NCBI GenBank assembly: GCA_022824965.1
Contig: JAJDYY010000003.1
Location: forward strand, 21,753 to 85,752
From: Gammaproteobacteria bacterium
GTDB lineage: Bacteria > Pseudomonadota > Gammaproteobacteria > UBA4575
DNA length: 64,000 bases
Direction of reading: 5' to 3'
Numbering within the stretch: the stretch's first letter is position 1; every line of letters begins with the position of its first letter. Made by a program: the position numbers and the translations under genes. This document shows positions 18,335-52,219 of the stretch, in pieces. The notes below the pieces were generated by a model. It worked only from the letters and a program-made list of their open reading frames with translations. It was not told where the DNA came from and made no database searches.

Positions 18335-18704
18335 GTCCATACCGCAACGAACTTCATATGCATTGAGCACCCAGGCGTTCCCAAGCCTGGGTGCGTGTGT
18401 ACAGGCGATGTGAGACAGCACGCACCCTCGCCCTGATGCTGTTTACAGCCCTTCCTTGACCCGTTTTGCCAGTCCGGCAAATCCGCTCATCCGGAGACAG
18501 TCAGGAAAGCTTCCTATACTGTTGATTTGAAAAGGTATCCACCATCCTTGCTTGGGGAGTAATATCCTGCAGCCCGGGCAGCCTGCCGACCTGTTTAAAG
18601 AATAGCCATTTTGGGCTATGATATGCGGTAGACAATTTTTCGAGACGACTGGTTTGTTTCATGCAAACCGGAGCGATTTCAGACGAGATGGCAGGAGAAC
18701 TAAC

Positions 18705-19406
18705 ATGTCAATTTTTAACAGAAGAAAATTTTTAAAAGCCACCGGGTGCACGATGGCTTTGGGTTCGGCGGGACTTGGGATCTCGCAGGCCTCGACCGAA
18801 AATGCAGTGGACTGGAAAGTGACAGGCAATTATTTCGAGTCTTGCACCTGTGACAACGTCTGCCCGTGTCTTTTGCTGAATGACCCGACCGTGGGTTCAT
18901 GCACGGCGCTTGTCGGCTGGCGTATTGACAAGGGTCATTATGGTGATGTCAGCCTGGACGGCACGAAAGTGTCCGTGTGGCTGCATGCCCCGGGAAACCT
19001 TCTCAATGGCAACTGGCGCGCTGCCCTGTATATTGATGACCAGGCGAACGATGCCCAGTTTCATGCCCTGAAGTCATTGTGGAGCGGTGAAGGCGGGGGT
19101 CACCTGGGTATAATTGCCAGTCTGATCAGCGACCTCATCAGTGTCAAGAAGGCCCATATCACCATCATGGACACGCCAGAGAGGAAACACCTGGTGGTGC
19201 AAGGCGTGGGTGAAAACGACATTTCCCCCATCAAGGGAGAAGATGGCAAGGACATCGTCCTGGCGCATACTCCGCTTGCCGTTGCGCCGCACAACCCGAT
19301 CACGCTGCACATGTCCAAGCGGGCGCGCTACCACGATAACGGCATCGACTGGTATGAGTCCGGCAAGGCCGGGCTGTCCTCGGCATTCCAGTACGGACCT
19401 GCCTGA
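18705..19406 (+). CDS. DUF1326 domain protein with twin-arginine signal peptide
   Basis: MSIFNRRKFLKATGCTMALGSAGLGISQAS leader followed by a close paralogue of 17726-18334; RBS GCAGGAG. Confidence 0.8.
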   Translation: MSIFNRRKFLKATGCTMALGSAGLGISQASTENAVDWKVTGNYFESCTCDNVCPCLLLNDPTVGSCTALVGWRIDKGHYGDVSLDGTKVSVWLHAPGNLLNGNWRAALYIDDQANDAQFHALKSLWSGEGGGHLGIIASLISDLISVKKAHITIMDTPERKHLVVQGVGENDISPIKGEDGKDIVLAHTPLAVAPHNPITLHMSKRARYHDNGIDWYESGKAGLSSAFQYGPA

Positions 19407-19516
19407 GCGTACACTCGCGATCTGATTTCCTGGCCACGGCCAGTATCCTGCCCGGTCGACAGACCGGGCAGCCATCTCTGTCTGCGATTCGCTGACAACA
19501 GGCACTCGACCACCCG

Positions 19517-20350
19517 ATGATACCTACCTGGATCAAGGCCGCGCTTGCATGGTGCGGGCTGGCGGTTTCCCTGCTTGCAAGTGCAGGGGCAGGTGATCTT
19601 TCGCTGACCGGCAACCTGATTCAGGGCGGGCTGGCTTTCGGACAGGTGAGCCCGGACTCGAAAGTATGGACCAACGGGCACGCGGTGCGCGTTTCCCCGA
19701 CCGGTGAATTCATCCTCGGGTTTGGCCGGGACTACCCACCCCAGGCCACCGTCATCGTACAGGCGAAAGACCAGACCGTGCGCTCACACACGTTCAACAT
19801 CGCCGGGCGCGAGTACGATACCCAGCGTATCGACGGCCTGCCAAACGCCCAGGTGAACCCGGGGCCGCAGACCCTGCGGCGGATTCGCAGGGAAAGTGCC
19901 GAAATAACAGTGGCACGAAGCCTCGATGACGACCGTATGGATTTCAAATCAGGATTCATATGGCCCGTGCATGGGCGGATCTCAGGAATTTACGGCAGTC
20001 AGCGGATTCTCAACGGCGAGCCGCGCCAGCCCCATTACGGCATTGATATCGCAGCACCCGTCGGTACACAGGTTCTCGCGCCTGCCCCCGGCCGGGTGAC
20101 CTACGCCGAGGATATGTATTTTTCAGGAGGCACGCTGGTCGTCGACCATGGCCAGAACCTGTCATCCTCCTTCCTGCACCTGCACAAGATCCTGGTAGCG
20201 GTCGGGGAACACGTGGAGCAGGGACAGCCGATCGGCCTGGTGGGCGCCACGGGCCGGGTCACGGGTCCTCACCTGGACTGGCGGATGAACTGGCACCAGC
20301 AGCGACTGGACCCCGGCTTGCTCATGGACGGGACGCAGCCCGGTAACTAG
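19517..20350 (+). CDS. M23 family metallopeptidase
   Basis: Signal peptide, HYGIDIA and TGPHLDW Zn motifs. Confidence 0.9.
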   Translation: MIPTWIKAALAWCGLAVSLLASAGAGDLSLTGNLIQGGLAFGQVSPDSKVWTNGHAVRVSPTGEFILGFGRDYPPQATVIVQAKDQTVRSHTFNIAGREYDTQRIDGLPNAQVNPGPQTLRRIRRESAEITVARSLDDDRMDFKSGFIWPVHGRISGIYGSQRILNGEPRQPHYGIDIAAPVGTQVLAPAPGRVTYAEDMYFSGGTLVVDHGQNLSSSFLHLHKILVAVGEHVEQGQPIGLVGATGRVTGPHLDWRMNWHQQRLDPGLLMDGTQPGN

Positions 20351-20395
20351 GCGAGTACAGACCGCCGTCGCGCTCTGCAGGGCCCTGGTTGCAGC

Positions 20396-21580
20396 CTAGG
20401 CGTTCTGGTAGTAATCCATCAGGATTTCGGCGACTTCCGGTCTTGCAAATTCTTTCGGCAAGGATTCGCCAGCCGCCAGCATGGCGCGGACCTTGGTTCC
20501 GGACAGCAGCACAAAATCCTCTTTTTCATGGTCCGGCGCATCGCGCATCATGACGACCTGGTTCAGTTTTTTGGAATAGGCCGTGTGGTCTGCGCGGAAG
20601 ATCTCGATCCCCAGCGTTCCCGGGGGAACTTCCTGATCGAAAATCTCCTGTGCATCGAACGCACCGTAGTAGTCGCCCACTCCGGCATGGTCACGGCCAA
20701 TGATGAAATGCGTGCAGCCGCAGTTCTGACGGAAAACCGCATGCAGTACCGCCTCACGCGGGCCGGCGTACAGCATGTCGAATCCATAACCTGTGATCAT
20801 GACGCTGTTGGGCGGGAAATAGAGTTCCACCATCTTGCGAATGGCGGCATCACGCACGGGGGCAGGAATGTCTCCCGGTTTCAGTTTCCCGAGCAGCATG
20901 TGCACCAGTATGCCGTCCGCGCCCGTGGCTGCCTGGGCCATCTTGCACAGTTCTTCATGGGCACGATGCATGGGGTTTCGGGTCTGGAAGCCCACCACAG
21001 TTTGCCAGCCCCGCTCGGCGATTTCATCACGGATTTCAACCGCGGTGCGAAACGTGTCCGGAAACTCATCCCGGAAGTAGCTGTAGCTGAGTACCTGTAC
21101 GGGGCCGGAAATCACCGATTTTCCCTGTGCCATGAGGGTGGCCACGCCGGGATGCTCCTTGTCGGTAGTGCGGTACGTCTTTTCCACGATGGTGGCCAGC
21201 TGCTCGTCACTGAGTTCCTCAACGGCCTCCACTTCCTGGACCGCGATCACCGGTGAGCCGTCCACATTGGGGTCTTTCAGTGCAATGCGCATGCCCGGGC
21301 TTACGGAAGATGCATCCTGCACGAGATTCATGATCGGGACCGGCCAGAACAAACCGTCGCAGGTGTGCATGGTATTGGCCACCGAGATTGAATCCTGGAT
21401 GCTCATGAACCCGGCAAGCGGTGTAAAGTAGCCGGCCCCGAGCATCACGACATTGCAGGAAGCCGCCGAACTCAGCGTTACGGAGGGCAGGTGCTCCGCT
21501 TCCTGCTTCAGGCGTTCGCGCTGTGCTCCATCACTGACATACAAAGGTTTCAAGGCATCGGATCCATGCGGCTTAATCAT
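20396..21580 (-). CDS. sat: sulfate adenylyltransferase (homo-oligomeric, Sat type)
   Basis: MIKPHGS start, FQTRNPMHRAH and GRDHAGVG. Confidence 0.95.
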   Translation of the reverse strand: MIKPHGSDALKPLYVSDGAQRERLKQEAEHLPSVTLSSAASCNVVMLGAGYFTPLAGFMSIQDSISVANTMHTCDGLFWPVPIMNLVQDASSVSPGMRIALKDPNVDGSPVIAVQEVEAVEELSDEQLATIVEKTYRTTDKEHPGVATLMAQGKSVISGPVQVLSYSYFRDEFPDTFRTAVEIRDEIAERGWQTVVGFQTRNPMHRAHEELCKMAQAATGADGILVHMLLGKLKPGDIPAPVRDAAIRKMVELYFPPNSVMITGYGFDMLYAGPREAVLHAVFRQNCGCTHFIIGRDHAGVGDYYGAFDAQEIFDQEVPPGTLGIEIFRADHTAYSKKLNQVVMMRDAPDHEKEDFVLLSGTKVRAMLAAGESLPKEFARPEVAEILMDYYQNA

Positions 21581-43129: not shown

Positions 43130-43244
43130 TGACCCTTGCATGCGGATCAACTGGACGCTTGGGTGCTGGACTTTGTTCTGGTTTCAAAGGTCAGGATCCG
43201 GCTTGATGGCGAGGTCTCAGTGGATTTCCGGCCGATGCAAACAG

Positions 43245-43318
43245 GGCCAGGTGGCAGAGTGATGATGCAGTGGCATGCAAAACCCTCTATACCGGTTCGA
43301 TTCCGGTCCTGCAGCTTG
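43245..43318 (+). pseudogene. degenerate tRNA-Cys(GCA)
   Basis: Clearly homologous to 52039-52112 with an identical T-arm, but acceptor GGCCAGG/CCTGCAG has 3 mismatches, anticodon stem GTGGC/ACCCT is broken, D-loop GG is GA, and there is no CCA. Confidence 0.85.
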
Positions 43319-43321
43319 CCA

Positions 43322-43409
43322 GCCCGGGTGGCGGAATTGGTAGACGCAAGGGACTTAAAATCCCTCGCCCATACAGGGTATGCCGGTTCGACTCCGGCCC
43401 CGGGCACCA
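43322..43409 (+). tRNA. tRNA-Leu(TAA)
   Basis: GCCCGGG/CCCGGGC acceptor, AGGGA-CTTAAAA-TCCCT anticodon arm, long variable arm, A73 and encoded CCA. Confidence 0.95.
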
Positions 43410-43674: not shown

Positions 43675-44181
43675 GTGCCGGCGTCTGTGAAGCTGCGCCT
43701 GAAGAAGCTGGAGGGCTTCGCGCGGCTTCGCGCCGCGGGCTGCAGCGAGGCCGGCGCCCTGGAGCAACTGGAGATCAGCCGGCGCACGCTGTATCGCTGG
43801 AAGGCCGCACTGGCCGGAGGCGGCCTGCAGGCCCTGGCGTTCCCGCTGCGCTCGGTCCAGGTGGACGGCACCAGCGAGTTCATGGCGGACTTCGAACAGG
43901 CCTGTCAGGACCTCAACCTCGCCCTGTATGTGCTGGTGCCCAGGCGCCCCCAGTACAAGGGCTGCGTGGAACGCACCAACCGCAGCGCCCGCATCGAGTT
44001 CCGGAGCCTGTACGACGGCCCCCTGCGCGTCGAACCGGTGCAGGCCGCACTGGCCGACGATGCGTTCTTCTATCACTACCAGCGACCGCATGCCGCACTC
44101 GACGATCCAACCCCCAACGAGTACCTTGTCCAGCTGGAGGCCGCCTGATCCCAGCAGTGCCATAGGTGCTGAACCCATATA
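43675..44181 (+). mobile_element. IS481-family transposase remnant with in-frame internal deletion, plus its right end
   Basis: HTH (ISRRTLYRWK...GLQAL) fused directly to the distal integrase core (FPLRSVQVDGTSEFM...GCVERTNR...RPHAAL); the central region including the first catalytic Asp is missing. Confidence 0.82.
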
Positions 44182-44255: not shown

Positions 44256-44873
44256 ATGGGCAAACAAATTGTTTCAAGGATGTCCCTGTGTTCAGCAGAA
44301 GGCCTGCATTGTCAGGCAGTTGAAAGATTGGCTGATACTGAAAATCATTGTGTCCGAAGGATTACCGGGATACTGTGGGCCGCAGTCCTTGCCATATTCC
44401 TTTTCATTTCTGATGAGGCTTTCGCGTATGAGCAGTTCCGTGTAGGGGAAAATGAGTGGAAGAAGGTATCGTTCAGCCTGCCAAGCTATCCGCATGAGGC
44501 AAGACGATTTAAAAATGCGGGCTATGATGGTGTGAGATACAGTGTATGCTTGTCGGACGGGACTGCAACAGGGGTCGACTGGTCAGTCGTAGGATCAAAC
44601 ATTAGAGACTACTCCCGCTTGGAGGGCAAGGACTACGTAAGCGGATGCGGGTTTGTTTACACGGCAAAGAGCCGAGGCAGGTTCTCCAAGTGGTTTGAAT
44701 TTTATACGACTCCCCTCGATGACGCGGAAAAGGAAGGTGATGAATATTATTGGTTCTATTTCTCAAATCCCGAGGTGAAGCGGGCCGGGAGCAGTACATG
44801 GGAAAGCCACAGCGGGAGCCATCATGTACCGGCAACTATACGGGTACAGATTATCATTGAGGATAACGACTAG
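44256..44873 (+). CDS. hypothetical secreted protein
   Basis: RBS AGAGGA; hydrophobic stretch ending in AFA (signal peptidase I-like site); aromatic-rich mature domain with no family recognised. Confidence 0.7.
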   Translation: MGKQIVSRMSLCSAEGLHCQAVERLADTENHCVRRITGILWAAVLAIFLFISDEAFAYEQFRVGENEWKKVSFSLPSYPHEARRFKNAGYDGVRYSVCLSDGTATGVDWSVVGSNIRDYSRLEGKDYVSGCGFVYTAKSRGRFSKWFEFYTTPLDDAEKEGDEYYWFYFSNPEVKRAGSSTWESHSGSHHVPATIRVQIIIEDND

Positions 44874-45171: not shown

Positions 45172-46398
45172 TTATTCGCCCTGGAGCCCCGCAATCGGAT
45201 CAAGCCGTGAGGCTTGGTGCGCGGGCTGGAACCCGAAAAACAGCCCGACTGCGACAGCGGTGCCAAAACCGCTGGTCACGGATACCCCCGAAATGAGGAA
45301 GTTCCAGCCGGTGAATTGGCAGATTCCCCAAGTTACCACTAAGCCTAGCAGAATTCCGAGTACGCCACCTGCCATCGTCAGGATCAGGGATTCAATCAAG
45401 AACTGGCTCTGAATATCCTCGCGCTGGGCACCAAGAGCCCGGCGGATGGCAATTTCCCGGCGACGTTCTGCTACGGAAACGAGCATGATATTCATGATGC
45501 CGATCCCGCCGACAATCAGCGAGATGCTACCTACTGCCCCCAGCAGCAGGGTGAAAATACCCATCTGCGCCTCCATCTGTGCGATCAACTCCTTGGCAGA
45601 GAGAATGTCGAGACTTACCTGGGGAGAGCGGTCCTGAAAGAATGACTGGACATCTGCGACCGCCGCTGTGTGGTGGATGCCAGCGCGTGACCGGGCAATA
45701 ACGATGTCAATGTTTGCAGGAATGATGGCCCGTCTCGCGGTGGTGATGGGCACGAAAACTGCATTATTTGCCTCCACCTGGATCGGCAGTGCGTAGTTCT
45801 CAGTCGTGTGATTGAGCACGCCCACGACAGTGAACAACAGCCCGTTCACTTCAATGATCTGGCCTATCGGCTGGGTCTCTCCATTTTGACGCATCTTGTC
45901 TGCGATGCTGGCACCGATGACACAGAAAGAGCGATCGACATCGAGATCGGAAATGAATCTCCCTTCCCGAAGGGATAGCCGGTTTACAGCAGCGAACGAT
46001 TCAGTAACGCCCTGGATGCTGCCCCGCCCGACCTCTTTTCCAGCATGCCAGGACTCTCCATGGCTCTGGATCCTGGGTGCTGCCTCGGCAATCGACGGCA
46101 CTGCCGCTGCCAGTTCTGTCGCATCTTTTAGACTAATCTCAGTGGCATCCGAATTCATGAACTGGGGCGCTGTCCGGATCAGCATGACATCTGTACCCAG
46201 GGCTTCGAATTCCTTGCGGGCCTGCTCCCTGGCGATTTCTCCAAGCGAAACCATGGCAATGACTGAGGAAATACCAATCATGATGCCGATCAGGCCGAGA
46301 ATTGTGCGCAATCGTGCCCTGCGCAGGCTGCTGACTGCCTCCCGGGCATTGGCAGCCAGCACCGGGAGAAGCCTAGATCTAGCTATGAAATCTGTCAT
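45172..46398 (-). CDS. MacB/FtsX-type ABC transporter permease
   Basis: RTILGLIGIMIGISSVIAM, large periplasmic domain, VGGIGIMNIMLVSVAERRREIAIRRALGA and PAHQASRLDPI. Confidence 0.92.
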   Translation of the reverse strand: MTDFIARSRLLPVLAANAREAVSSLRRARLRTILGLIGIMIGISSVIAMVSLGEIAREQARKEFEALGTDVMLIRTAPQFMNSDATEISLKDATELAAAVPSIAEAAPRIQSHGESWHAGKEVGRGSIQGVTESFAAVNRLSLREGRFISDLDVDRSFCVIGASIADKMRQNGETQPIGQIIEVNGLLFTVVGVLNHTTENYALPIQVEANNAVFVPITTARRAIIPANIDIVIARSRAGIHHTAAVADVQSFFQDRSPQVSLDILSAKELIAQMEAQMGIFTLLLGAVGSISLIVGGIGIMNIMLVSVAERRREIAIRRALGAQREDIQSQFLIESLILTMAGGVLGILLGLVVTWGICQFTGWNFLISGVSVTSGFGTAVAVGLFFGFQPAHQASRLDPIAGLQGE

Positions 46399-47141
46399 CT
46401 TGGCAGGATTCCCTCTGGAGCATCTTCCGGTAAAGTTGCACCGGGGTCCTGTTCCTTCACCTCGAGGAGTTTTCCATCCCGAAGATGCAACTGTCGTATA
46501 CATTGGCGTGCAACCAGCGGGTCATGCGTGATGATCAGGATCGTGATCCCCTGTTCTGCATTCAGTTGCAGGAGCAGGTTCATTACTTCCCGGGCTGTCT
46601 CGGAGTCCAGCGCACCGGTCGGTTCATCGGCCAGCAAGAGTTCGGGTTCTCCTACCAGTGCCCGGGCAATAGCGACCCTTTGTTTCTGCCCACCAGAGAG
46701 CTGGCTCGGACGATGATTCATACGGTCGCTCATGCCGACCTGTTCCAGAAGTGCGCCTGCCCGGCGCTTCATCTCCGGGCTTCTGATACCCCGGTAGACC
46801 AGCGGTAGACAGACGTTCTCAAGGGCAGTCAGGTTTGCCAGCAGGTTGAAAGACTGAAATACGAACCCGATGTGCTGGTTCCGCAAGGCTGACAGGACGC
46901 TGTCATCGAGCTTGGAAACATCGCGCCCGTTGAGACAGCAGCTGCCCGAAGTCGGGCGGTCCAGCAGACCAATGATGTGCATGAGCGTGGACTTGCCGCT
47001 TCCCGAGGGCCCCATGACTGACAGCAGGTCACCTGCCTTGACCTCCAGGTCAATTTCTTGCAGGACCTCTGTGGTGACCGGCCCAATCGCATAGGACTTC
47101 TGGAGGCTTGCCAGGCGCAGCACGCACGGCTGGGCCGTCAT
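46395..47141 (-). CDS. MacB/LolD-type ABC ATP-binding protein
   Basis: GPSGSGKST, LSGGQKQRVAIARAL, LLADEPTGALD and ITHD. Confidence 0.94.
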   Translation of the reverse strand: MTAQPCVLRLASLQKSYAIGPVTTEVLQEIDLEVKAGDLLSVMGPSGSGKSTLMHIIGLLDRPTSGSCCLNGRDVSKLDDSVLSALRNQHIGFVFQSFNLLANLTALENVCLPLVYRGIRSPEMKRRAGALLEQVGMSDRMNHRPSQLSGGQKQRVAIARALVGEPELLLADEPTGALDSETAREVMNLLLQLNAEQGITILIITHDPLVARQCIRQLHLRDGKLLEVKEQDPGATLPEDAPEGILPR

Positions 47142-47208
47142 GCCGGGATCCCCACTGCCCACAGCGACAGTCCCTTACGGGGCTGGCTTGCATGATGCTG
47201 ACAGCCCT

Positions 47209-49044
47209 TCATGGAAGAACGATAGTTTCACCGAAGGAGAGCCCCGTCACGACCTCGACAGACTCCAGCGTAGTGAGGCCAAGCTCGACAGCGCGACGCT
47301 CTATTGCCTCGGTCTCCGGGTCAATGACGTGAATCCAGGCTTGGTCTGCCGATTGTTCCACTGCATGGATCGGAACCAGTACCGCCTCTGACTGGCTGTA
47401 CACGACGATCGTAACATGTGCAGACATTCCAACCCTTAGTCGGTCCAGGGCTTCTGCCGACAGCTTGTCCAGGGTCACGACGATCTCGAATTGCGGGGCA
47501 CTGCGCATCCCCGTACTTGCATTGGCCCGCGAGGAAACGCGAGTAACCGATCCCTCGAGCCTCAGATCAGGAAACCCGGGTCCCGTAATCCAGGCCTGCT
47601 GGCCAACCCGGACTTTTCTTACATCTGCCTCATCAATCTGGGTAGAAACCGAGACACTGCTGAAATCAGCAATTTGCAGCAGCAGCTCTCCCTGCGAGAG
47701 TGACCGGCCCCGTGCCAGAGGTTTTTGCCCGGACTCACCCGCAGTCGCCAGAACAACTCCAGAAATCGGTGCTCGAATCCGGGTCTGATCGAGCTTCGTC
47801 GCGTATGTGTGCAGCCGGTCTTGAGCATTCTGCGCTTCCAGTTCTGCGATTTGCTTTTCCTCCGGGCTGCCCTGTGCCTGGACGGTTACCAATTCCCGCT
47901 CAGCCTCCTCAAAATCCAGTTGCCGACTCTCACGCTGGCGCTGTGCCTCTTCATGCTCTGAAGCAGGGATAATCCCCTGCTTCAGCAGAAAAACGATCCG
48001 CTTGAAGTTCCGATCGGCATCATCAAGCCCCATTTTTGCCCGGCGCAGGGCCCGCCGTGCACGCGCCATTTCCGTACTGTTTTCCCAGTCTTCAATCTCG
48101 GCCAGCCGGTCACGGGCCTTGATATACTCAATTCTGGCCTGCCGGTGTTCCGCAGTGAGCCGACCGGTATCAAGGTCCACGAGCAAATCACCCTTTGTTA
48201 CCTGTTGCCCGAGAGCCGTATGTACCGCACTTACATGACTTTCGATTGGGCTGACAACCTCTACGACACGTCCCGGGACCAGATGTCCGCGCAGTGAAAT
48301 TGTGGAATCAAAGGCTCCAGCCTCCAAAGTCATCGTTTGCATGGTCCCCGGGGAACCTGGAAATCCTGGAAATCCTGGAAATCCTGGGAATCCCGGGACC
48401 CCTGGGTCCCCAACGATGAAGCCAGGAGCTAATTCCGGAGGAGGCTCCGGGTCAAGAGAATCCAGTGGTTGGATGTACCAGGTCCCGAAGGCAAGAAACA
48501 GGCTCAGGACAAAGACTACTGCGAGACTGCGTGCCGTCTGGATCTTCTTTGTCATCTGGGAGAGTGCCTCGTTACGGGTCTCGAGGTCACGGTATGCGGT
48601 TTGAAGCTCACCCAACTGCTTTTCAATGACCTTTTTCATGCGCAGCTCGGCTTCGTGCAGGTCCCGGATTTCAGTGATATCGGACACGACAGCGATCACG
48701 GCATCCCGCCTCTTTTCCCCACCGTGGACCGTAGTCAGATATGAAGTCACTACCGACAGGGAGCGGAGCTCTTCTCCGATGCGGACGCGGGCAATCTGCC
48801 GTTTGCCGTCTCCCTGCTCCATGATTACATCGAGAACAATCTGGACAAACTCGTCGAATTCTTCGAATGCAATGAAGAGTTCTCCAAAAAGATGGCCTGT
48901 TACCTCCTCGGGAGCGAGATCAAACATCTGGCAAAAAGCGGTGTTGGCGATCCGGACAGATCCGTCAAAATCAATGACCATCACGCCATCAGACAAGCTC
49001 TCGAGAAGAGTCTGGTAAAGATCCGGGTTGTGATCTTGTTTCAC
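47209..49044 (-). CDS. PAS-domain-fused periplasmic adaptor (membrane fusion protein, MacA/HlyD-like)
   Basis: Residues 1-125 PAS (LLESLSDGVMVIDFDG.V..AN.AF..MF...VVSDITE), then coiled coil, one TM helix, and lipoyl-hairpin-barrel MFP (GQQVTKGDLL, IRAPISGVV, IDEADV.KVRVGQ). Confidence 0.85.
   Translation of the reverse strand: MKQDHNPDLYQTLLESLSDGVMVIDFDGSVRIANTAFCQMFDLAPEEVTGHLFGELFIAFEEFDEFVQIVLDVIMEQGDGKRQIARVRIGEELRSLSVVTSYLTTVHGGEKRRDAVIAVVSDITEIRDLHEAELRMKKVIEKQLGELQTAYRDLETRNEALSQMTKKIQTARSLAVVFVLSLFLAFGTWYIQPLDSLDPEPPPELAPGFIVGDPGVPGFPGFPGFPGFPGSPGTMQTMTLEAGAFDSTISLRGHLVPGRVVEVVSPIESHVSAVHTALGQQVTKGDLLVDLDTGRLTAEHRQARIEYIKARDRLAEIEDWENSTEMARARRALRRAKMGLDDADRNFKRIVFLLKQGIIPASEHEEAQRQRESRQLDFEEAERELVTVQAQGSPEEKQIAELEAQNAQDRLHTYATKLDQTRIRAPISGVVLATAGESGQKPLARGRSLSQGELLLQIADFSSVSVSTQIDEADVRKVRVGQQAWITGPGFPDLRLEGSVTRVSSRANASTGMRSAPQFEIVVTLDKLSAEALDRLRVGMSAHVTIVVYSQSEAVLVPIHAVEQSADQAWIHVIDPETEAIERRAVELGLTTLESVEVVTGLSFGETIVLP
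48346..48411 (-). repeat. Gly-X-Pro repeat (GDPGVPGFPGFPGFPGFPGSPG) with three exact 9-bp units
   Basis: cctggaaat x3 plus cctgggaat on the + strand at 48356-48391. Confidence 0.9.
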
Positions 49045-50468
49045 TGGAATTCTTCCTCGATCCGGATGCCCCAGAGATCAAGTGTTCGACCCGAGCTCTG
49101 GTCAAGCCGTGTCCGTGCCTCCAGGTAATTGATGATCGTATCAACCTCAGACTGTTCAGCGTTGACCAGCGCGTCTTCAGCAGCTGACACCTCGAAAGAA
49201 GAGGCCAGGCCCTGGCCGAACTTTTTCTTTTCAATCACCAGGTTTTCTGCAGCCAGCTCGCGTGCATCGCGGGCCATCTCGATCAGGCGAAGTCCAACTT
49301 CGACATCGTTAACAGCCCGGCGGATTTCAATACCAATCGACTCGCGCAACTCGGCCAGGCCTCTTCGAGCTTGGCGTAACCTGTTTCCGGCTGACAGGCG
49401 GTTGAGGTTATCTGTCCGGTCGGTCAGGGGAAAGGTGGCGTCCATCTGTACCCGGGTGTCTGTGTCCCCACTGTCATCACGGTTCCAGGAAACTCCCAGT
49501 GACAGGTCCGGCAGCAAGTCATTTTGTGCCACCTCCACGGCGATCTGGGCAAGATCGATTTGCAGTTGGGCTTGGAGGAAGTCAGGGCGACGACGCAACA
49601 CTTCTTCAAGCACGGGGTTCTGGTCCCCTTGTCGATATTTCACTTCTAGCTCATCCAAGGGTTGAATCTGGATTGTACTGTCCAGTTCCAGGATACCGAT
49701 CAGATTGAAGTTCGCAATGTCCAGGCGATTGCGTGCCTGGGTTAGTGCCAGCTCGCGGTTGGCGACAGTTGCTTCGGAGCGTACAGCTTCCCTTTGTGCC
49801 ACGCGCCCTGCGTAAATCAGGGCCTGGGTTGCTTTTAACTGTTCCCGTGCGCGGCGCAGCGATGCCTCTCCGATCTCTACCTGCTGAGCCGCTGCAATCA
49901 GTGCCCGGTATGATCCGGACACCTGGACGATCAGATCCTCCACTGCCTTGCGCAGGGAGAGGATATGAATCTGGTCCTGGATCTGGTCTTGACGGAATGA
50001 TGCTGTCTCGATACCTGTCCAAGCCCCTTTCAGCAGTGGCTGGGAGAAGCTTAGGGTCTGCGATCCGGAGTCCTCGAACTTGTCGGAGAGGGTTTCCTCC
50101 CACCGCAAAACAAATTGGCCACCAGTATGGACGCGCAAGTTTGTCTCGGCACCTACTCCCGCCTTGCGGTCCTGTCGATCTGTGCTGGCAAAAGGCTGCA
50201 CGGTGAACTGGGGAACCCATCGGTCGCCAGCGACATCAAGGGCAAATTTCTGTACCTCCCGGTCAGAACGCTGGTTGATGAGTGGTCGATTGTACTCCAG
50301 CGCACGCTTGACTGCGTCTTTCAGTGTCAGCTTGAGTGTGCTGGAAGGCAGGACAGAGGGCGAGCTTGCCAACACAGACACTGGGGCAAACAAGAAAACC
50401 ATAGCCCAGAGGCAGACAAAAAACGACCTGACCCTGAACATCTGCTCCAAGCTACTCTCTTTCAACAC
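49041..50468 (-). CDS. TolC-family outer membrane efflux protein
   Basis: Signal peptide, LTLKDAVKRALEYN, SQPLLKG, LPDLSL and helical repeats; first gene of the exporter operon. Confidence 0.85.
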   Translation of the reverse strand: MLKESSLEQMFRVRSFFVCLWAMVFLFAPVSVLASSPSVLPSSTLKLTLKDAVKRALEYNRPLINQRSDREVQKFALDVAGDRWVPQFTVQPFASTDRQDRKAGVGAETNLRVHTGGQFVLRWEETLSDKFEDSGSQTLSFSQPLLKGAWTGIETASFRQDQIQDQIHILSLRKAVEDLIVQVSGSYRALIAAAQQVEIGEASLRRAREQLKATQALIYAGRVAQREAVRSEATVANRELALTQARNRLDIANFNLIGILELDSTIQIQPLDELEVKYRQGDQNPVLEEVLRRRPDFLQAQLQIDLAQIAVEVAQNDLLPDLSLGVSWNRDDSGDTDTRVQMDATFPLTDRTDNLNRLSAGNRLRQARRGLAELRESIGIEIRRAVNDVEVGLRLIEMARDARELAAENLVIEKKKFGQGLASSFEVSAAEDALVNAEQSEVDTIINYLEARTRLDQSSGRTLDLWGIRIEEEFQ

Positions 50469-51059: not shown

Positions 51060-51482
51060 CTAGAACTGCATGCCCAGGTTCAGGGCAGCGGAGAGGGCCT
51101 GGCTGTCGGTATCCAGGGCCTGTCGGGCCGATACGGTGGTTTCGAGGATCCAGGGCCCTTTCTGCCATCCGGCCCCCAGGCCAAGGATGGCACCGGTATC
51201 CTGCGTGCTGGCCCGCAGGCGGGTGCCAGAGACTTCTGCCGTAGTATCCGTACCCCTGATGTGATGCTCCAGGTGCACTGAGGCCCGTAACGAGAGCTCT
51301 CCACCGCCTGCACTTCGTGCGCTGTCGGTGGCAATGCCCAGGGCTACACTGGAACGGTCCTCGTCCGAAAAGGAGACATCGGCCTGTACCGTATCGGTAA
51401 AGCGGTCAATACTCACCTGGGTATGGGAAAGACGGATATGCGGAATCCAGTGTATCCGGGATCCCATCCGGTGTCCTGCCTC
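51060..51482 (-). pseudogene. C-terminal fragment of an autotransporter-type beta-barrel, truncated at an IS end
   Basis: EAGHRM...IPHIRLSHTQVSIDRFTD...alternating beta-strands...ALNLGMQF (terminal Phe); the reading frame runs up to the IS junction. Confidence 0.72.
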
Positions 51483-51928: not shown

Positions 51929-52038
51929 CGAGTGCTGTGTCTGGGATGCTTATTCTTGATGCTGGTCACGAAGAATTATTTTTCTTGGGTACTGAATCCA
52001 AGTCGCAAAAAGAATATTGTTGTTTTATTGTTGTACAA

Positions 52039-52112
52039 GGCTAGGTGGCAGAGTGGTGATGCAGCGGCCTGCAAAGCCGTCTATACCGGTTCGATTCCGG
52101 TCCTAGCCTCAA
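52039..52112 (+). tRNA. tRNA-Cys(GCA)
   Basis: GGCTAGG/CCTAGCC acceptor, GCGGC-CTGCAAA-GCCGT anticodon arm, canonical T-arm and U73; 3' end reads CAA rather than CCA. Confidence 0.88.
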
Positions 52113-52133
52113 TTTGGACTGACTCATTTATCG

Positions 52134-52219
52134 GTCGGGGTGGCGGAATTGGTAGACACAAGGGACTTAAAATCCCCCGCCCGCATAGGGCATGCCGGTT
52201 CGATTCCGGCCCCGGACCA
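52134..52219 (+). pseudogene. degenerate tRNA-Leu(TAA)
   Basis: Homologous to 43322-43409 but with a G.G mismatch or 2-nt deletion in the acceptor (GTCGGGG/CCCGGAC), C.A in the D-stem, A.C in the anticodon stem, and no properly placed A73-CCA. Confidence 0.75.

Follow-up and report, generated by a model that had tools for sequence, protein, structure and literature searches.

Why should the periplasmic adaptor of a tripartite exporter begin with a cytoplasmic sensor domain? The question is raised by one gene in a 64,000-nucleotide stretch of contig JAJDYY010000003.1 from a gammaproteobacterium of the lineage UBA4575 (the whole stretch is here called the window, and all positions refer to it). 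The original prediction, made from the sequence alone, read the gene product as a PAS domain, a coiled coil, one transmembrane (TM) helix, and a complete periplasmic membrane fusion protein (MFP), and proposed that a cytoplasmic cue might gate the pump. The explanation that best joins our results is a tripartite exporter with a PAS-bearing adaptor, in which the PAS domain acts as a posttranslational switch and Calx-beta proteins are the cargo; we give this reading as a whole a probability of about 0.5.

Domain architecture of the adaptor

Pfam, TIGRFAM, and AF2 bore out both the coordinates and the domain order that had been predicted. The parts of the adaptor are as follows.

47209 to 49044, minus strand: PAS-coiled coil-TM-MFP adaptor, 611 amino acids (aa), open frame (Pfam, TIGRFAM, phmmer, AF2, Foldseek)
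48679 to 49026, minus strand: cytoplasmic PAS domain, aa 7 to 122, with a C-terminal D122-I-T motif (Pfam and TIGR00229 matches, AF2 fold)
48529 to 48678, minus strand: coiled-coil "signaling helix," aa 123 to 172, better conserved than any other part of the adaptor (heptads, AF2, identity)
48472 to 48528, minus strand: single TM helix, aa 173 to 191, N terminus inside (hydrophobic run kept across the family)
48340 to 48471, minus strand: disordered Pro/Gly-rich periplasmic linker (pLDDT of <50)
47212 to 48339, minus strand: periplasmic MFP with membrane-proximal, beta-barrel, and lipoyl domains and a long alpha-hairpin (TIGR01730; MacA is the top match)

The prediction depended on an N terminus that scores as PAS, and this it does. 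Residues 9 to 126 exceeded the gathering scores of four Pfam PAS models, PAS, PAS_4, PAS_8, and PAS_9 (bits/cutoff: PF00989, 33.1/22.6; PF08448, 31.5/23.1; PF13188, 30.4/21.8; PF13426, 27.8/27), and the TIGR00229 "sensory_box" model scored 40.3 against a cutoff of 22.9. The protein was placed in the MFP/periplasmic adaptor superfamily by TIGR01730 (RND_mfp; 124.9 bits; cutoff, 94.9), with further Pfam matches to HlyD_D23 and HlyD_3. The closest solved match of the periplasmic part was MacA of MacAB-TolC (phmmer, 1e-15), and Foldseek searches with the predicted structure returned MacA, AcrA, and MexA at the top (4e-23 to 9qgy_G and 5nik_D).

In the AF2 model (pLDDT of 71), residues 7 to 122 form a PAS fold whose order of secondary structures fits PAS, and one unbroken helix from residue 124 to 188 comprises both the coil and the TM segment. 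Residues 190 to 233 are disordered, and the MFP beyond them has a hairpin made of ~60-residue helices. The heptad pattern of the coil spans residues 126 to 168, with a/d positions at 144, 147, 151, 154, 158, 161, 165, and 168; there is a stutter near residues 139 to 144, and Asn158 is conserved at an "a" position. Basic residues (K166, K167, and R172) precede the TM helix and an acidic stretch follows it, which puts the PAS domain on the cytoplasmic side. The linker contains a 9-bp tandem repeat encoding (PGF)n (positions 48347 to 48406; Tandem Repeats Finder [TRF], period of 9, 4.2 copies), and an orthologue with 95% identity has two PGF repeats fewer.

Conservation and nearest relatives of the PAS-coil module

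The aspartate of the DIT motif, D122, was invariant in a 57-sequence alignment extending down to 30% identity, and I123, T124, and E125 were nearly so. G20, V21, G28, N34, and E133 were nearly invariant in the same alignment and invariant in a 20-sequence PAS alignment. Mean pairwise identities within the adaptor family were 61% for the PAS domain, 69% for the coil, and 62% for the MFP; in a wide set of adaptors they were 35%, 39%, and 34%, respectively. [quoted passage not shown]

A C-terminal DIT motif is a mark of signaling PAS domains. In the adaptor, a conserved DIT ends the last strand and a heptad-repeat helix follows directly, as expected of this class. The nearest solved PAS domains in a PDB profile search were the cytoplasmic PAS domains of WalK, ThkA, VicK, and DcuS. 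In these histidine kinases (WalK PAS-cyt, ThkA, VicK, and DcuS PASc), as in the adaptor, the DIT motif leads into a parallel coiled coil; the kinase helix, however, runs to a cytoplasmic DHp/CA output, whereas the adaptor helix runs to a TM segment and a periplasmic adaptor. In the family alignments, no Cys or His of the kind that ligates flavin in LOV domains or heme was invariant, and the PDB profile search returned only generic, cofactor-unspecific kinase PAS domains; the adaptor PAS domain could be ligand free or could still bind a cofactor, such as those of LOV (FMN), FixL/DosP (heme), NifL/Aer (FAD), or PYP domains. Purifying selection, the invariant DIT aspartate, and the unbroken coil into the TM helix together fit a signaling-competent PAS domain wired to the adaptor TM helix, and a regulatory role is plausible from these sequence features.

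Exporter partners and comparison with known systems

The adaptor gene had been predicted to share an operon with genes for a TolC-like protein, a LolD/MacB-type ATPase, and a MacB-type permease, and Pfam identified all three.

49041 to 50468, minus strand: TolC-like outer membrane factor, first gene of the operon (PF02321 OEP, 6.9e-40, 137 bits, two repeats)
46395 to 47162, minus strand: ABC ATPase of the LolD/MacB-NBD type (ABC_tran, 2e-34, 120 bits); the true start is probably an internal Met at about 47141
45172 to 46398, minus strand: MacB-type permease with MacB_PCD and FtsX (PF12704, 9e-35, 121 bits; PF02687, 4e-20, 72 bits)

The stop codon of the outer membrane factor gene overlaps the adaptor start as GTGA, and the permease start overlaps the ATPase stop as ATGA; these overlaps indicate that the genes are translationally coupled. 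The outer membrane factor has the two repeats of the OEP family and fell below the cutoff of the TIGR01844 TolC subfamily (81 versus 225). The permease and ATPase have the features of MacB-type (type VII) ABC transporters and remained below the MacB, LolD, and DevA/C equivalog cutoffs; the ATPase scored 259 bits with LolD and 255 bits with the NBD part of MacB, both under the respective equivalog thresholds. The locus is thus a four-gene MacAB-TolC-type tripartite exporter with a PAS domain in place of the short tail of the adaptor. The original prediction held that the island carries no regulator or kinase gene; none was found there, and none was conserved beside the operon in 79 loci.

The system shares with MacAB-TolC of E. 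coli (5NIK, 9QGY) a MacB_PCD/FtsX permease, a long-hairpin adaptor of the hexamer type, and a TolC-like duct. It differs in the cytoplasmic part of the adaptor, a short tail in MacA but ~170 residues (PAS and coil) here, and in that the ATPase is fused in MacB but separate here, with the OEP gene inside the operon. Scores with the MacA equivalog NF008606 (83.1 versus 342) and with MacB (255 versus 966) were far below the cutoffs, and from these scores we regard the adaptor as a protein that would work like MacA without being its orthologue. DevBCA-HgdD, the cyanobacterial heterocyst glycolipid exporter, and split MacB-type systems likewise combine a separate ATPase, an FtsX-type permease, an adaptor, and a TolC homologue. 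DevB, however, has no PAS domain, and none of the Dev models reached its cutoff (DevB [TIGR02971], 65.6/129; DevA, 209/295.8; DevC, 19.6/290); in place of the glycolipid exported by DevBCA, the cargo of this system is probably a protein.

Genomic island, spread, and mobility

The operon lies inside an 8.8-kb island flanked by tRNA genes.

43241 to 43409, plus strand: left border, with a decayed tRNA-Cys and a tRNA-Leu repeat (ARAGORN calls the Leu gene only)
52035 to 52219, plus strand: right border, with tRNA-Cys and tRNA-Leu (ARAGORN and direct repeats)
43675 to 44148, plus strand: transposase/integrase fragment within the island (HTH and rve_3)

The direct repeats, D1 and D2, are 90 to 91% identical and lie 8.8 kb apart. 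Two genomes of the same family without the operon offered no clean empty site: no tRNAs follow moaA in them, and fur is 56 to 94 kb away.

Far from being unique to this assembly, the fusion belongs to a large conserved family. More than 120 full-length adaptor homologues (50 to 95% identity) all had PAS and MFP matches, and a search of 1.84 billion representatives with the N terminus alone gave 378 matches below 1e-10. The 57 of these matches that were aligned represent about as many further 50%-identity clusters, reach down to 30% identity, and are 544 to 634 aa long; 56 scored as HlyD-type adaptors and 55 as PAS. The four exporter genes occurred together in nearly all of the 79 loci, in the order OEP-PASMFP-ABC-permease in ~75 of them, while one distant genome had them in permuted order. 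As for prior description, neither the open-access literature nor NCBIfam yielded a publication or characterization of a PAS-fused adaptor; a study outside that coverage is possible.

Three matters went beyond the original prediction, namely the ecological restriction of the operon, its mobility, and its linked Calx-beta proteins, and all bear on the cargo of the pump. Every family member found came from a metagenome or a metagenome-assembled genome (MAG), that is, from uncultured organisms; they span several phyla, and several are demonstrably from sponges. Sponge origin is documented by the jk18x bins and by taxon names tied to sponge papers, bin names elsewhere being mostly uninformative. 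From taxon and bin names, we take many of the MAGs with this exporter to be probable sponge symbionts. The operon was present in 2 of 400 sampled genomes of the same class and in neither of the two same-family genomes, phyla are intermixed in the family tree, and the 1.74-Mb genome carries a second, paralogous operon. On this comparative sequence evidence, the PAS-MFP exporter is a conserved, horizontally mobile family.

Calx-beta proteins as candidate cargo

A small gene in the island, here called ORFX, is convergent with the permease gene.

44256 to 44873, plus strand: ORFX, small Sec-exported protein with a predicted Calx-beta fold, candidate cargo; start uncertain

The signal peptide ends in an AxA site, and the mature part starts after AFA|Y, at ~44430. 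ORFX, which has no other family member in the genome, had no direct Pfam match, nor had several other neighbor families. When the ORFX family was compared by hhalign with PF03160-positive Calx-beta neighbors, the probability was 98.6% (E value of 1e-15). The 20 best Foldseek matches of its AF2 model (pLDDT of 80) in the PDB were without exception Calx-beta folds, with TM scores of up to 0.68, among them NCX1 CBD1/2, CALX, and integrin beta4. Profile-profile comparison and the predicted fold thus identify ORFX as a Calx-beta domain.

In HMM scans over stop-to-stop frames, 42 of the 79 loci had a Calx-beta-like domain within 2 kb of the operon. The frequency in the flanks fell from 23% at 0 to 1 kb to 1 to 4% at 4 to 6 kb, and about 45% of loci had no Calx-beta gene nearby. 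Sponge symbionts are generally enriched in Calx-beta genes (PMC9531527, PMC11706023), and so the linkage is suggestive of cargo and not proof of it. No lipobox and no RTX or C-terminal type I secretion signals were seen in the candidate cargos. These small secreted Calx-beta proteins may be what the exporter carries.

There are precedents for such a route. MacAB exports the Sec-delivered peptide STII from the periplasm. In the Aat system of enteroaggregative E. coli, a MacB-like pump, an adaptor, and a TolC-like outer membrane protein export Sec-dependent dispersin, which is encoded nearby. Aat therefore resembles this locus in concept, as a small Sec-dependent protein near a MacB-like tripartite exporter, but the two share no sequence family, the AatD-type acyltransferase is absent here, and Aat has no PAS module.

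Proposed switch and alternative explanations

In the mechanism that we favor, the PAS domains would pair via the parallel coiled coil. Dimers are favored by Asn158, which is conserved at an "a" position, so that three such dimers would make up the adaptor hexamer, and a coil of ~50 residues, ~7 nm long, would hold the PAS domains level with the ATPase dimer. How a dimeric PAS/coiled-coil unit would match an adaptor that is hexameric and a permease that is dimeric is a point to reconcile. A cytoplasmic cue, whether a ligand or the redox or energy state, would alter PAS-coil packing, and the rigid helix, by rotating or moving like a piston, would pass the change on to the TM helices in contact with the permease. 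This motion, or direct contact between PAS and ATPase, could toggle ATP-driven mechanotransmission or pump assembly, giving posttranslational control with no separate regulator. Sec-exported Calx-beta proteins would be picked up from the periplasm and expelled via the OEP, a two-step route likened to that of STII via MacAB-TolC and of dispersin via Aat.

The same module could instead be a constitutive scaffold that senses no cue, dimerizing the adaptors and docking onto or caging the separate LolD-like ATPase. A PAS domain with no cofactor or ligand motif suits this explanation, and so does a coil that is conserved above all other segments, as a packing surface or interface might be. The scaffold would stabilize a pump whose ATPase is made as a separate polypeptide, unfused to the permease, and some cytoplasmic PAS domains of kinases, e.g., DcuS PASc, are ligand-free transducers. 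Nevertheless, the invariant DIT aspartate and the heptad stutter are hallmarks of PAS-helix junctions that transmit signals, pocket-lining positions of the PAS domain are conserved, and DevBCA- and LolCDE-like systems with separate ATPases manage without such a module. We consider a pure scaffold possible but on balance doubtful. The rigid helix could also transmit in the other direction, with the adaptor reporting cargo load or OEP engagement to the PAS domain, which would recruit or release an unlinked cytoplasmic partner; PAS domains are, after all, common protein-protein interaction modules. Against such outside-in signaling, no partner gene is conserved near the operon in the 79 loci, the adaptor has no output domain, and the movement of the four-gene unit between phyla argues for self-sufficiency, which makes this reading improbable.

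A cytoplasmic domain that binds cargo for one-step export would have its model in HlyD. In HlyD, too, a functional cytoplasmic domain at the N terminus precedes one TM helix, and this cytoplasmic tail binds HlyA and sets off the recruitment of TolC. Weak HlyD-family matches of the adaptor point the same way. The HlyD tail, however, has ~60 residues and is not PAS, and HlyD works with a type I ABC exporter, which has a substrate channel; the transporter here is MacB type (MacB_PCD and FtsX), with four TM helices and no such channel. Direct cargo binding is accordingly very unlikely, and a type I secretion reading was rejected on three counts: the MacB-type partner, a TIGR01843 (type_I_hlyD) score far below its cutoff (41.8 versus 208.65), and the Sec signal peptides on the linked candidate cargos. 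Least credible of all is an artifact in which misassembly or a miscalled start fused separate genes for PAS and MFP. The adaptor is read in one unbroken frame that has a GAGGA Shine-Dalgarno sequence and the GTGA overlap with the upstream stop, and the same architecture and length (576 to 634 aa) recur in hundreds of independent assemblies, complete chromosomes included; the continuous frame and this recurrence refute it.

Significance

Control of tripartite pumps is believed to lie chiefly at transcription, and a sensor-type domain wired by a rigid helix into the membrane anchor of the adaptor would be a new, direct form of control over pump assembly or ATPase coupling. If the PAS switch is real, this would be the first sensor-domain-gated tripartite pump, and the PAS adaptor would offer a natural test bed for communication between an adaptor TM helix and a MacB-type transporter. 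A wider proposal, which we hold only tentatively and think less probable than the switch with its cargo, is that the family represents a horizontally spread, host-association-specific system with which sponge symbionts of many phyla would secrete small "eukaryote-like" Calx-beta proteins into the host matrix in two steps, with the PAS domain as a checkpoint that senses metabolic or redox state. Sponge symbionts have many eukaryote-like proteins, and for their delivery to the host, a mobile exporter linked to Calx-beta genes would be a concrete candidate.

Architecture of the adaptor and its operon

The minus-strand ORF at 47209-49044, 611 codons without interruption, was originally predicted to encode an adaptor with an N-terminal PAS domain, a coiled coil, a transmembrane (TM) helix, and a full membrane-fusion protein (PAS-MFP). 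This arrangement was fully confirmed by Pfam and TIGRFAM thresholds, an AlphaFold2 model, and Foldseek. The N terminus exceeded the curated cut-offs of TIGR00229 and of four PAS models in Pfam, and its nearest solved relative is the cytoplasmic PAS domain of the kinase WalK. The C-terminal 375 residues passed the TIGR01730 (RND_mfp) threshold and also matched HlyD_D23 and HlyD_3; the nearest solved relative of the periplasmic part is MacA (phmmer, 1e-15). The AlphaFold2 model, built with 29 homologues as input (pLDDT of 71), contained the following segments.

Residues 7-122: PAS fold
Residues 124-188: single unbroken helix
Residues 190-233: disordered Pro/Gly linker
After the linker: complete adaptor with a hairpin of ~60-residue helices

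MacA from MacAB-TolC cryo-EM structures ranked top when this model was searched with Foldseek. Column-wise hydrophobicity revealed a clean a/d heptad in the coil (144/147/151/154/158/161/165/168), with a conserved Asn at position 158 and a stutter near residues 139-144, and a hydrophobic TM stretch (173-191) directly C-terminal of the coil. Since basic residues precede the TM stretch and acidic residues come after it, the PAS domain was assigned to the cytoplasm. An in-frame 9-bp tandem repeat at 48347-48406 encodes (PGF)n within the periplasmic linker. The repeat is absent from other family members and has two units fewer in a 95%-identical orthologue; linker length is therefore polymorphic among close relatives.

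The neighbours of the adaptor are those expected of an operon with TolC, a LolD/MacB ATPase, and a MacB permease.

49041-50468: TolC-like outer membrane component (OEP)
46395-47162: LolD/MacB-like ATPase (ABC)
45172-46398: MacB_PCD+FtsX permease

Start/stop overlaps (GTGA and ATGA) and a GAGGA preceding the adaptor start argue for translational coupling.

Conservation and novelty of the family

A full-length search covering 5.8 billion proteins yielded >120 homologues of PAS-MFP (50 to 95% identity, 577 to 616 amino acids), so that the fusion is not confined to one assembly; with one exception, the 120 homologues listed matched both PAS and adaptor Pfam models. An artefact reading of the fusion was excluded. 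A second search, in which the 172 cytoplasmic residues alone were compared with 1.84 billion cluster representatives, gave 378 matches below 1e-10, and most of the ~600-amino-acid matches aligned once, N-terminally. Among 57 aligned matches, 56 carried HlyD domains and 55 carried PAS domains. Judged by sequence identity, the cytoplasmic module is constrained at least as strongly as the periplasmic part.

Segment identities in the close and wide sets of homologues
PAS: 61% close, 35% wide
Coil: 69% close, 39% wide
MFP: 62% close, 34% wide

The four genes stay together as a self-contained unit at nearly all of the 79 genomic loci examined, in the order OEP-PASMFP-ABC-permease at ~75 of them. A distant member from the same class (L089, G052:C1:150000-168000) has the four genes in a different arrangement, ABC-permease-OEP-PASMFP.

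By functional type, the system is an exporter like MacAB-TolC or DevBCA. The operon proteins do not score high enough for the MacA, MacB, LolD, DevA/B/C, TolC, or HlyD equivalog or subfamily models and therefore form a distinct family inside known superfamilies. Searches of the open-access literature turned up no account of an adaptor that carries a PAS domain, and NCBIfam holds no dedicated model for the family; members are publicly annotated as no more than "PAS domain S-box protein" or "HlyD family ... adaptor." The lack of description may be due to the fact that none of the members found stems from a culture.

Taxonomic spread and mobility

All 77 loci from a collection holding one genome per species were of MAG origin, and the sources in 20 further cluster look-ups were exclusively MAGs or metagenomes. 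Two of the taxon labels, Ca. Poriferihabitaceae and Ca. Porisulfidus, appear in sponge genome notes, and the "jk18x" bins are documented MAGs from Caribbean Ircinia sponges; the bin prefixes SB06xx, CAR, RHO, IRC, and COS presumably denote sponge-microbiome studies. By record titles, chromosome-scale assemblies carry the family in Alpha- and Gammaproteobacteria, Binatia, Vicinamibacteria, and Thermodesulfobacteriota; the Gemmatimonadota, Acidobacteria, and Nitrospinota labels occur on short contigs. The same or nearly the same short contig was found in MAGs labelled Gammaproteobacteria and Gemmatimonadetes (L060 and L061) and in MAGs labelled Alphaproteobacteria and Acidobacteria (L016 and L017). 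Cross-assignment during binning is likely in both pairs, so some taxon labels are likely binning errors, a caveat for claims of horizontal transfer from short contigs. Taxonomic groups are intermixed in the adaptor tree (e.g., four Binatia rows require four changes). Counting the organism's own genome, 2 of 400 evenly sampled genomes of its class had a full-length member, and neither of the two sampled genomes from its family had one.

The operon sits within an 8.8-kb island bordered by direct copies of tRNA-Cys plus tRNA-Leu (43241-43409 and 52035-52219; 90 to 91% identical, 8.8 kb apart), of which the left tRNA-Cys is no longer called by ARAGORN. The duplication looks like the integration scar of a mobile island, which also holds a transposase fragment. 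The island further contains, at 51060-51467 on the minus strand, an isolated fragment of an autotransporter beta-domain (PF03797, 1.6e-9); there is no other convincing gene at 50.5-52.0 kb, so the fragment is probably decayed cargo. Just outside the island, a P450 gene (53193-54551, plus strand) adjoins fur, and a relative (L008) has a GPP34+P450 fusion gene near its operon (18497-20578, minus strand); GPP34 has reportedly been associated with sponge symbiosis.

The genome (1.74 Mb, 97.6% complete) contains a second operon on another contig (C1:4852-10141), comprising OEP, a PAS-MFP of 608 amino acids that is 37% identical, ATPase, and permease; next on that strand comes a gene for a 162-amino-acid signal-peptide protein with no Pfam match. 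Two identical operons, with matches 11,851 bp apart and a Calx-beta gene after each copy, occur on Rhodospirillales contig CBDCSV010000010.1; either the whole module has recently been duplicated in tandem or the second copy is an assembly repeat.

Calx-beta neighbours as candidate cargo

Clustering of all flank ORFs revealed no conserved regulator linked to the operon and one recurrent family: small signal-peptide proteins, frequently in tandem, mostly convergent right behind the permease or right upstream of OEP. Many are Pfam Calx-beta proteins (1e-12 to 1e-16). In the window, this position is occupied by ORFX (~44256-44873, plus strand), a small signal-peptide gene convergent with the permease and without a Pfam match. 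ORFX belongs to the Calx-beta family: hhalign matched its family to the Calx-beta neighbours (probability of 98.6%, E of 1e-15), and the 20 best PDB matches to its AlphaFold2 model (pLDDT of 80) were Calx-beta domains without exception. It is the sole member of its own family in the genome, where the only Pfam-level Calx-beta gene is located elsewhere.

With HMMs of both groups, a Calx-beta-type domain was found ≤2 kb from the operon at 42 of 79 loci; ~45% of loci were without such neighbours. As an internal control, the share of flanks with a match dropped steadily with distance, being 23% at 0-1 kb and 1-4% at 4-6 kb. Because MacB-type pumps draw substrates from the periplasm and these proteins bear Sec-type leaders, the secreted Calx-beta proteins are plausible cargo of the pump, an assignment resting on gene linkage. 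The "eukaryote-like" domains reported as enriched in sponge symbionts include Calx-beta (PMC9531527, PMC11706023). In a divergent clade (~39% identity; L074, L075, L076, L078, and L082), the small Calx-beta genes are replaced by a conserved 350- to 580-amino-acid signal-peptide protein directly upstream of OEP on the same strand, which may be an alternative cargo; the two searched against Pfam (L075 and L082) had no match.

A possible cytoplasmic input to the pump

Asp122 is invariant in all 57 aligned sequences, down to 30% identity, and corresponds to the D of the "DIT" motif, through which the PAS domains of kinases and cyclases connect their last strand to the signalling helix. When the PAS profile was run against the PDB, every match was a kinase PAS domain of the cytoplasmic, transducing kind (WalK, ThkA, VicK, and DcuS PASc), which gave no hint of a cofactor. 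We propose that the PAS domains would dimerize at the height of the ATPase dimer, carried by a parallel coiled coil of ~7 nm, and that a cytoplasmic cue could change PAS-helix packing. The rigid helix would relay this change either to the ATPase itself or to the TM helix of the adaptor, and would thereby gate pump assembly or ATP-coupled mechanotransmission.

The main rival to such gating is that the PAS-coil serves as a ligand-free scaffold or as an ATPase-docking module. Outside-in signalling through the adaptor is less likely because the 79 loci share no neighbouring partner gene and the protein has no output domain; HlyD-like binding of cargo in the cytoplasm is less likely because a MacB-type transporter and a Sec-dependent candidate cargo argue against it.

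The new element is a sensor-type cytoplasmic domain borne by the adaptor of a tripartite pump. Its context is also new: a mobile module of uncultured, largely sponge-associated bacteria (a habitat documented in part) that is linked to Calx-beta proteins.
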